Shown: in pieces, positions 12,907 through 13,975 of the stretch
Position numbering within the stretch: the first letter of the stretch is position 1
How the letters are laid out: each line of letters opens with the position of its first letter
IMG/VR virus record: IMGVR_UViG_2778261177_000007
Location: 1 to 17,398 of that record
DNA length: 17,398 nucleotides
Reading direction: 5' to 3' (one strand)
Source: a virus
Taxonomy: Duplodnaviria; Heunggongvirae; Uroviricota; Caudoviricetes
Notes under the pieces: generated by a model
Told to the model about the DNA's origin: nothing
What the model saw: the letters and a program-made list of their open reading frames with translations, nothing else
Databases searched by the model: none
Translations under genes and position numbers: made by a program

Positions 12907-12933
12907 GGGGAGGGCTTAGCCCTCCCTCTTTTT
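12907..12933. terminator. Shared hairpin terminator between the convergent adhesin and esterase genes
   Basis: GGGGAGGGCTTAGCCCTCCC stem-loop followed by TCTTTTT on the plus strand, 12 nt after the adhesin stop; the U-tract overlaps the esterase stop codon (12932..12934). Confidence 0.65.
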
Positions 12934-13975
12934 ACAGGTTAGCGTTTGGGTTTTGTTGTTGGGGAGCTGTTTTTATAGGCGCTCCCAGGTTTTTAGTAAA
13001 CCACTCAACGACTCTGTTTATAATAATTGGCTGATACCATGTCTTATCGCCATGCTCGGCCCCTTCTACCAGCACGTACTCAGCGTTATCGCCGTTCTTC
13101 TTCAACATCCTGAATAGTTTGGCGCTTTGCTCAGGTGAAACCAGAGTGTCTTTGCTACCATGCATAATAAGAAATGGGGGTTTTACTCCTTTCATATGTC
13201 CGATTGGACTGGCGTTTAGCGCTTTTTCTTTTGACGCTGTGATGGGGGCTCCCGCAAAATTTCTGAATGCAGGGCCATTGATCATTAAGGCTTCGGTTAC
13301 GGCAGGAGAGCGATGAACCTCCTGCACTGATTCAGGGAACCCCTCGCCAATATTCAACAAGTCAGAAATCCCATAAAGTGTGGCAACTGCCTGAACATCT
13401 GAGGATTGCTGAAGAAAGTCACCTTTATCAAAGGTTTTGTCACCATTTGTAGTTCCCATCATCTGAGCAAGCCATCCACCGGCAGAGTCACCCAGAACTC
13501 CGATTCTTTGAGGATCAATCCCATAATTGCTGGCATGCTCTCTCAGGTAACGTATTGCAGCTTTTCCATCCTCAACTGGTGCTGGAAATGTATCAGGAAT
13601 TGTTCTGTATTCTACAGCGGCCACAACAAAACCAGCTTCTGCCAGAGCCATTCTCATTTCAATAAATTTGTCATGTTCAGAAGACATGAATCCGCCGCCG
13701 GGATAATAAATAATGGCTGGTTTTAAATCATTTGTTCGCGGGACAAGAACTGACATGTGAAGCTGTTTGACAGAACGAGTTCCTTTTATCTGGGAATAAA
13801 CAACATCACCAATGAGATCGACCTGGTTTCTGGTCGGTGAAACACTAATGATATCTGCACCCGGGGTGTAACCAGGAAGATTAGTCTGGACAGGTGTTGC
13901 ACAACTCCCGACCGACATGGCCATTGACATACCATACAATAGTGTTGCAGATGATAATATCTTGTTAATTTTCAT
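12932..13975 (-). CDS. Secreted alpha/beta-hydrolase esterase/lipase (HSL/Aes-like), probable lipoprotein
   Basis: 347-aa ORF; signal peptide ending in a lipobox-like SVGSC; oxyanion-hole motif YYPGGGF; nucleophile elbow GDSAGG; C-terminal His in EGAEHGD. Confidence 0.8.
   Translation of the reverse strand: MKINKILSSATLLYGMSMAMSVGSCATPVQTNLPGYTPGADIISVSPTRNQVDLIGDVVYSQIKGTRSVKQLHMSVLVPRTNDLKPAIIYYPGGGFMSSEHDKFIEMRMALAEAGFVVAAVEYRTIPDTFPAPVEDGKAAIRYLREHASNYGIDPQRIGVLGDSAGGWLAQMMGTTNGDKTFDKGDFLQQSSDVQAVATLYGISDLLNIGEGFPESVQEVHRSPAVTEALMINGPAFRNFAGAPITASKEKALNASPIGHMKGVKPPFLIMHGSKDTLVSPEQSAKLFRMLKKNGDNAEYVLVEGAEHGDKTWYQPIIINRVVEWFTKNLGAPIKTAPQQQNPNANL

Follow-up and report, generated by a model that had tools for sequence, protein, structure and literature searches.

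Feruloyl esterases of two lineages are among the closest described relatives of the gene reported here. BD-FAE, an enzyme of gut Bacteroidetes and the prototype of Pfam family PF20434, is a feruloyl esterase that also deacetylates birchwood xylan and p-nitrophenyl (pNP) acetate, and its catalytic triad is Ser128/Asp237/His269 (PMC8165983). The Dickeya enzymes FaeD and FaeT (Hassan & Hugouvieux-Cotte-Pattat 2011) are CE10 feruloyl esterases, with FaeD a type II-secreted exoprotein, as summarised in papers that cite the original work. Here we describe a related gene in a 17,398-nt stretch of virus DNA (IMG/VR virus record IMGVR_UViG_2778261177_000007, positions 1 to 17,398; "the window" below refers to this whole stretch), in which a serine esterase is encoded on the minus strand at 12932–13975, facing a gene for an inverse-autotransporter adhesin. 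Both its enzyme family and its niche, the lambdoid prophage moron, are known; the esterase itself is uncharacterised. We consider it a little better than even that the product is an exported, envelope-anchored hydroxycinnamoyl esterase, carried as a stand-alone moron and not as a partner of the adhesin.

Enzyme family, catalytic residues and predicted export

The gene, its upstream region and its principal motifs lie at the following positions of the window:

12932–13975, minus strand: esterase gene with an ATG start, encoding a 347-residue serine esterase of the BD-FAE family
13976–14322, minus strand: upstream non-coding region, kept with the esterase gene in both of its arrangements (with the adhesin gene or with emrE-ybcK)
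13688–13702, minus strand: P92-G-G-G-F96, the oxyanion-hole motif, with Pro where HSL enzymes have His
13475–13492, minus strand: G162-D-S164-A-G-G167, the nucleophile elbow, with Ser164 at 13484–13486
13148–13150, minus strand: codon of Asp276, the predicted catalytic acid, within HGSKDTLV
13052–13054, minus strand: codon of His308, the predicted catalytic base, within EGAEHGD
13904–13975, minus strand: predicted signal peptide, residues 1–24, with the n-region MKINK, the h-region ILSSATLLYGMSMAMS and the lipobox start V-G-S
13901–13903, minus strand: TGT codon of Cys25, the putative lipidation site, a Cys that is conserved in close relatives

The best Pfam family of the esterase was BD-FAE (PF20434; E = 5.6e-45, 153.9 bits against a cutoff of 26.8), and the match covered profile positions 7–214 of 215. 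Abhydrolase_3 matched residues 88–309 more weakly (81.3 bits, cutoff 25) and was outscored by BD-FAE, while Peptidase_S9 matched residues 249–331; the same split Abhydrolase_3/Peptidase_S9 signature is given for BD-FAE by its defining paper (PMC8165983). An initial annotation of this region had proposed a Ser-Asp-His alpha/beta hydrolase from PGGGF and GDSAGG motifs and a C-terminal His, all of which are present (residues 92–96, 162–167 and H308). In an alignment of 37 sequences spanning 62–79% identity, P92, G93–95, F96, G162, D163, S164, G166, G167, D276 and H308 were all invariant. In addition, S164, D276 and H308 fell on residues 121, 230 and 262 of the 6xyc chain in the HMMER alignment. 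These positions presumably correspond to Ser128, Asp237 and His269 of BD-FAE, if the chain is numbered 7 lower, an offset that we assume from truncation; 6xyc and 6tkx are taken here as structures of BD-FAE itself. Because the three residues are invariant and align to the BD-FAE triad, the catalytic triad is judged to be intact, and the esterase is a Ser-Asp-His alpha/beta-hydrolase with the predicted triad Ser164-Asp276-His308.

The nearest solved relative by sequence was the rumen esterase Lip_vut4 (6nkf, E = 1.9e-37), and further solved relatives were the Bacteroides GH43-CE protein 6mly and the gut-microbiota carbohydrate esterase 6xyc/6tkx. When an AlphaFold model of the esterase, built on the 37 homologs (mean pLDDT 80.6), was used as a Foldseek query, the same solved set came first, together with Thermogutta esterase 2.

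The initial annotation had also called the enzyme HSL-type, a label that fits only loosely: the profile search it had proposed confirmed an esterase family, with BD-FAE as the best. A true HSL or family IV lipase or esterase, acting on host or membrane acylglycerols, would explain the GDSAG-type GxSxG motif (G162-D-S-A-G-G167), the 81-bit Abhydrolase_3 match and the word 'lipase' in the name of the top structural match. However, the HGGG oxyanion motif of that family is absent and is replaced by Y-P-G-G-G-F, with an invariant Pro at position 92 in place of the histidine, and the C-terminal half is not HSL-like but resembles Peptidase_S9/BD-FAE. Moreover, the curated models for the HSL subfamilies and Aes all failed, at 32–79 bits against cutoffs of 350–430 (NCBIfam scores/cutoffs: GTSAG 54.5/380, GESAG 47.6/430, GCSAG 32.3/410, LipP1 78.9/350, Aes PRK10162 57.5/389). 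We regard an HSL enzyme as highly improbable.

The open reading frame (ORF) is real, beyond chance. Besides the 153.9-bit BD-FAE match, the homolog search returned 2583 homologs, and dN/dS between E. coli alleles was 0.12–0.35, a range that shows purifying selection. The start codon is preceded, at a distance of 10 nt, by an AAGG. The exact protein is present in RefSeq as WP_089695952.1, labelled 'alpha/beta hydrolase'; it matches the PHROG family phrog_3341 ('esterase', E = 3e-129), and one phage record labels the gene product 'esterase'. A literature search found no paper on this gene and nothing relevant on the phages carrying it (Bievrevirus, 4A7). The region given in the initial annotation starts at 12907, a position that belongs to a hairpin (below); coding runs from 12932. 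The gene presumably has a promoter of its own in 13976–14322, a view against which it must be counted that no sigma-70 match of at least 9/12 was found upstream of it on the minus strand (13976–14330).

At the N-terminus, MKINK-ILSSATLLYGMSMAMS-VGS-C25-ATP comprises a positive n-region, a hydrophobic core and a Cys after small residues, which bears out the lipobox-like export signal of the initial annotation as far as signal features go. From these features, Sec export of the esterase is very likely. An N-terminal signal peptide occurred at the same place in nearly all of the 120 best homologs, most of them having an AxA-type cleavage site just ahead of a conserved LPGY motif, and a minority being shorter and cytoplasmic-looking.

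The Cys itself is conserved. An exact 63-nt probe centred on the TGT codon was found in 677 of 682 complete E. coli genome records, the TAT (Tyr) version of the probe matched no complete E. coli genome exactly, and Cys25 was encoded in all 43 IMG/VR loci. In all five closest relatives (75–96% identity) the h-region likewise ends at a Cys, amid divergent flanking residues, the lipobox variants of the E. coli protein and these relatives being VGSC, SAGC and, three times, STGC. Under the Lol sorting rule, by which the residue at +2 sets lipoprotein sorting, Ala at +2 predicts outer-membrane targeting.

Several points weigh against lipidation. With Gly at −2 and Ser at −1, VGSC is an unusual lipobox: it fits PROSITE PS51257 but, at −2, fails the stricter [LVI][ASTVI][GAS]C. 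A signal peptidase I (SPase I) site (S-C-A, then T) is a possible alternative to the lipobox, and a Tyr occupies the Cys25 position in the cluster representative P0001 and in P0005. Owing to the atypical lipobox, the conceivable SPase I site and the Tyr variants in two clusters, lipidation at Cys25 is only probable.

Relatives and substrate clues

Homologs at 57–73% identity were widespread: they are ordinary genes on the chromosomes of bacteria associated with plants, soil or the gut, among them plant-associated Enterobacterales (Dickeya, Pectobacterium, Pantoea, Erwinia, Kosakonia and Klebsiella), Rhizobiales, leaf Sphingomonas and gut Sutterellaceae. A D. aquatica protein annotated 'Ferulate esterase' (SLM61953.1) was 66% identical to the esterase over 327 amino acids, and a second D. 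aquatica 'Ferulate esterase', 43% identical, is encoded 3 kb from it.

The gene neighbourhoods of the homologs were compared at 84 loci. Only two neighbours recurred across lineages, namely a gene for a phenolic acid decarboxylase (PF05870) and a divergent gene for a LysR regulator. The decarboxylase gene was immediately upstream on the same strand at 12 of the 84 loci, with one adjacent pseudogene in addition; the linked loci span alpha- and gammaproteobacteria, and three of the four closest non-phage relatives (75–78% identity) lie in this decarboxylase cassette. For example, the E. coli IncF plasmid pSCU-105-1 carries a RefSeq 'phenolic acid decarboxylase' gene followed by that of an 'alpha/beta hydrolase' (WP_169063299.1), which is 75% identical to the window esterase and has an STGC lipobox. 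Since the substrates of phenolic acid decarboxylase are the free forms of ferulic, p-coumaric and caffeic acids, the simplest reading of an esterase gene directly after it is that the esterase liberates those acids from esters. Taken together, the homology to the Dickeya ferulate esterase and the recurrent decarboxylase linkage favour plant hydroxycinnamate esters as the substrate, and the surface or host glycans or lipids suggested in the initial annotation are less well supported than these.

We therefore prefer, with the qualified confidence stated at the outset, the following mechanism. The product would be a Sec-exported serine esterase of the BD-FAE/Dickeya FaeD-FaeT lineage with a P-G-G-G oxyanion loop, and the mature enzyme would be N-acylated at C25 and tethered to the outer membrane, either periplasmic or surface-facing. 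It would hydrolyse hydroxycinnamoyl esters, both those of feruloyl or p-coumaroyl groups with plant arabinoxylan or pectin fragments and those of the chlorogenic acid type, to yield the free phenolic acid, with an acetyl-ester side activity possible as in BD-FAE. For the lysogen, the gene would serve as an auxiliary metabolic or fitness gene in a plant-fibre-rich gut.

Some observations count against this substrate assignment. The name 'ferulate esterase' of SLM61953.1 is an annotation, not an assay, and the protein may be either FaeD or FaeT. BD-FAE- and CE10-type esterases are promiscuous, so that the substrate is not readable from sequence. Furthermore, the prophage copy is without the decarboxylase and the LysR regulator and is similar to the decarboxylase-linked loci only from 10 nt ahead of its start codon. 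It may thus differ from them in regulation and in physiological role. No decarboxylase remnant was found upstream of the prophage esterase gene.

In a second reading, the enzyme is a broad-specificity acetyl or short-chain carboxylesterase that acts on acetylated xylan, pectin, O-acetylated mucin sugars or bacterial surface polysaccharides. The deacetylation of birchwood xylan and pNP-acetate by BD-FAE itself is in line with this idea, as are the acetyl xylan esterases and generic esterases among the solved relatives, the weak NCBIfam matches to acetyl esterase, PaeX and AxeA1, and the restriction of the decarboxylase linkage to a minority of the homolog loci (13 of 84). However, every one of these NCBIfam matches was far under its cutoff, the evidence from the closest clade and from Dickeya favours phenolic esters, and glycan-utilisation genes were not recurrent beside the homologs. 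We consider a general acetyl esterase rather unlikely and retain the hydroxycinnamoyl esterase as the preferred assignment.

Two groups of homolog loci deserve description in their own right. In Dickeya (loci L007–L009, ~5001–10076), two BD-FAE paralogs of 343 and 328 amino acids lie 3 kb apart, each near a LysR gene and with an MFS transporter gene between them; signal peptides are apparent in both, and the 328-residue paralog has FGASAGG in place of GDSAGG. FaeT, however, is reported to be cytoplasmic, and faeR is reportedly an adjacent regulator gene that mediates induction by ferulic acid. The closest non-phage homolog (80% identity, STGC lipobox) is on an ENA metagenome contig (L015, 1–8573), near genes for a SPATE-type autotransporter protease (Peptidase_S6) and a PerC-like regulator, which suggests a pathogenicity-island or virulence-plasmid context.

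The prophage cargo slot and the separable adhesin

The window is an E. coli lambdoid prophage: its own phage genes include int, exo, bet, a cI-like repressor gene, O and P, and the 1.6 kb around the esterase gene were 99.9% identical to many E. coli chromosomes. In strain Z1323HEC0475, the region lies in a lambdoid prophage integrated at tRNA-Thr beside proA, in the order repressor, ydaT, O, P, adhesin, esterase, ylcH-ybcN-ninE-ybcO-rusA-Q and then lysis/head genes. The adhesin and esterase genes thus occupy a variable cargo slot between the replication gene P and the ybcN/nin region, with the esterase gene oriented against the early-right operon. The GC content of the cargo is 41–46%, versus 50–55% in the O and P genes, and the slot position together with this GC content marks both genes as horizontally acquired cargo. 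The two features on the left of the esterase gene are:

8987–12895, plus strand: gene for an inverse-autotransporter adhesin of 1302 amino acids, with an IAT_beta domain and Big_1/Invasin_D3 repeats
12907–12927, no strand assigned: GC-rich hairpin between the convergent genes, whose plus-strand T-run CTTTTTAC overlaps the esterase stop codon

The initial annotation had described the esterase as co-acquired cargo partnered with the adhesin. The cargo part of this claim holds; the word partnered overstates the link. The esterase gene was found in 681 of 5426 complete E. coli genomes (~12.5%), with near-full-length copies in 671 of the 681. A probe across the adhesin-esterase junction was covered to at least 80% in 426 genomes, leaving ~37% of the esterase-positive genomes without the adhesin junction; the other matches to the probe comprised the esterase half only, from window position 12928, or the adhesin half only, up to 12934. 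Among the 43 IMG/VR loci, the neighbour of the esterase gene was the adhesin gene in 25, ybcK in 13 and other cargo in 4, the remaining locus ending at a contig edge. The co-occurrence analysis that the initial annotation had called for thus speaks against a fixed pair.

The alternative arrangements were read in individual genomes. In strain DA33135 and phage 4A7, ren-emrE-ybcK converges on the esterase gene, and of the nine phage-collection records with the esterase gene, eight have ybcK as its neighbour, as read in phage 4A7. Eight phage records have it at 98.8% identity (Lambda_4C10, 4A7 in two records, D2, 1W, 3W, Perceval and PhiR47_2). Another arrangement has genes for an SMR transporter and an outer-membrane protein (OMP) beta-barrel adjoining the esterase gene, in one annotated example the adhesin gene is followed directly by ybcN with the esterase absent, and in strain R14 ISEc23 is inserted in the esterase 3' end. 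The slot can thus be filled by the esterase gene together with the adhesin gene, with emrE-ybcK or with the SMR and OMP genes, or by the adhesin gene without it.

The junction itself was then considered. The genes are convergent with a single hairpin terminator between them, as the initial annotation had noted: the hairpin at 12907–12927 is the only one between the adhesin stop (12895) and the esterase stop (12932), it was scored on both strands by the terminator scan, and its folding energy is −17.2 kcal/mol (z = −2.55 versus shuffles). The description of this element as a shared terminator holds only in that one hairpin separates the genes, for the hairpin travels with the adhesin side: it is kept with the adhesin gene where the esterase is absent, the adhesin-only matches reaching window position 12934. 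Similarity between the adhesin and ybcK arrangements ends 4 nt past the esterase stop; in the ybcK arrangement another hairpin takes the place of this one, while the CTTTTTACAG tail after it is unchanged. The hairpin is therefore assigned to the left-hand module, and the T-run to the esterase 3' end.

These results bear directly on the possibility that the esterase is a functional partner of the adhesin, preparing its ligand or modifying the adhesin or the cell surface under co-selection. Such a partnership would be consistent with the convergent genes and their one common hairpin, with the junctions intact in 426 genomes and 25 of the 43 IMG/VR loci, and with the envelope nature of both products. 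It would also fit the fact that the esterase alleles track the arrangement, identity to the window allele being mostly 98.7–99.9% beside the adhesin and 97.3–98.8% beside ybcK; however, this is equally the pattern expected from the clonal spread of one haplotype. The missing junction in ~37% of the esterase-positive genomes, the ybcK neighbour in eight phage-collection records, the adhesin alone in the same slot elsewhere and the break of homology exactly between the two genes all argue against it, as does the finding that, outside these prophages, no adhesin was among the recurrent neighbours of the homologs in ~80 other species. We consider a functional partnership very unlikely. The adhesin is a frequent but separable neighbour and not part of the esterase unit; both genes are cargo, often co-inherited, yet independent modules. 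The esterase gene would then be a stand-alone moron with transcription signals of its own in the slot between P and ybcN/nin, and its adjacency to the adhesin gene would reflect the common use of one cargo slot and the clonal spread of one haplotype rather than a functional pair.

A role in the service of the phage was weighed as well, namely superinfection exclusion, receptor modification (acyl stripping) by an outer-membrane lipoprotein, or anti-phage defence. The prophage lipoproteins Cor and Llp exclude other phages, and the esterase gene sits in a prophage cargo slot, is predicted to be envelope-targeted and keeps company with envelope morons (OMP beta-barrel, EmrE, adhesin). However, PADLOC defence models gave no match, orthologs at 57–73% identity are ordinary chromosomal genes, and the closest relatives are located in a metabolic cassette. 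This role seems to us as improbable as the HSL assignment, and a metabolic moron remains the reading that we prefer.

Carriage by Escherichia phage PHB10 was not counted among the phage records. Its homolog, within locus L003 (MK524177.1, 16006–28859), is 70% identical, signal-less and of the cytoplasmic type, and it lies amid bacterial-looking genes for a LysR regulator, an amidohydrolase, a gluconolactonase and an aromatic alcohol reductase. This gene block recurs in Raoultella, Enterobacter, Pantoea and Serratia chromosomes, and looks like bacterial DNA inside a phage record.

The adhesin was also compared with the named E. coli inverse autotransporters (FdeC, YeeJ and IatA-D), and this identification was rejected, as sizes and contexts mismatch; the paper on these proteins mentions neither a prophage nor the esterase. 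Within the adhesin gene, window positions 10296–11001 hold a 357-bp tandem duplication (2.0 copies, 98% identical) that encodes a repeated Ig-like domain; in part of the E. coli genomes the gene is shorter by 357 nt (match span 3552 versus 3909 nt). Many E. coli genomes match only positions 1310–3909 of the adhesin query, the region of signal, beta-barrel and first repeat (window 8987–10296) being swapped, which makes the inverse autotransporter a mosaic.

Regarding the rest of the region, the P-ybcN slot (window 8738–14422; loci L002, L004, L005, L006 and L132) holds interchangeable envelope-related cargo, of which ren-emrE-ybcK is as in DLP12. A 334-residue ORF with no Pfam, PHROG or PADLOC match (14864–15868, plus strand) directly follows a ybcN/NinB-like ORF that stops early at 14827, and IS3-family transposase genes orfA/orfB (16332–17398, plus strand) run up to the window end. 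No colinear match of 13900–17398 was found in any complete E. coli genome, and the window prophage thus appears truncated or rearranged after ybcN.

Implications and comparison with known systems

The gene is ordinary in kind, but it yields a hypothesis of phage-conferred polyphenol metabolism in E. coli. If the proposed substrate holds, ~12.5% of E. coli genomes carry a phage-delivered enzyme that releases ferulic, caffeic and p-coumaric acids from dietary fibre and chlorogenic acids. Such cinnamoyl esterase activity affects polyphenol bioavailability and is seen in some colonic E. coli isolates. The gene would also be a clear example of lysogenic conversion in which commensal or extraintestinal pathogenic E. 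coli (ExPEC) gains a metabolic gene, and it would show a single enzyme lineage passing between phage cargo and a catabolic cassette on a plasmid. We consider two aspects mildly new: the phage carriage of a FaeD/FaeT-like enzyme and the lipobox switch in the mobile-element clade. For annotation, the results argue against treating the adhesin and the esterase as an operon-like virulence pair.

Cinnamoyl esterase activity has been described in three human colonic E. coli isolates, Nu, MC and WC-1 (Couteau et al. 2001, as cited in PMC9560768). Carriage of a prophage gene by ~1/8 of genomes would suit such a strain-specific trait. We put forward, tentatively and as a possibility that we still find doubtful, that human colonic E. 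coli strains with cinnamoyl (chlorogenic acid) esterase activity owe this strain-specific trait to the prophage esterase, through phage conversion, the lipobox marking a switch from a free to a tethered enzyme that is possibly surface-displayed through the type II system, as are PulA and SslE. We know of no gene that has been assigned to the trait of these isolates.

Among phage-borne enzymes, the NanS-p proteins of enterohaemorrhagic E. coli (EHEC) prophages resemble the proposed role, in that a lambdoid prophage esterase gene unlocks a gut nutrient. However, they are sialate O-acetylesterases of another fold, encoded in the late region near stx, and we are aware of no sequence relationship between them and the prophage esterase. 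The HSL family (family IV, E. coli Aes) shares the alpha/beta-hydrolase clan, the GDSAG-type elbow and a glycine-rich oxyanion loop, which is HGGG there and PGGG in the esterase, and differs in the C-terminal half.

BD-FAE shares with the esterase the family, the split signature, the aligned Ser-Asp-His triad and the fold in Foldseek. It is only ~26% identical, however, and sits in Bacteroidetes xylan-utilisation loci, whereas the esterase is a solitary E. coli prophage gene with a GGG loop where the matching chains have G-S-A-W.

For the Dickeya FaeD/FaeT enzymes, the comparison is with the two D. aquatica proteins named 'Ferulate esterase' (66% and 43% identity) and shows the same length and motifs and an apparent N-terminal export signal. 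Unlike in the prophage esterase, the signal peptide of the Dickeya protein is of the ordinary AxA type and has no lipobox Cys, and its gene is chromosomal, near LysR regulator genes and beside a paralog, not on a phage. The prophage copy has no regulator gene beside it, whereas LysR genes accompany the decarboxylase-linked relatives. Finally, the Enterobacterales LysR-decarboxylase-esterase cassette exemplified by pSCU-105-1 differs in the decarboxylase and regulator genes that the prophage copy is without, and otherwise resembles the prophage esterase in its 75–79% identity, in a Cys at the same position and in its location on mobile DNA.

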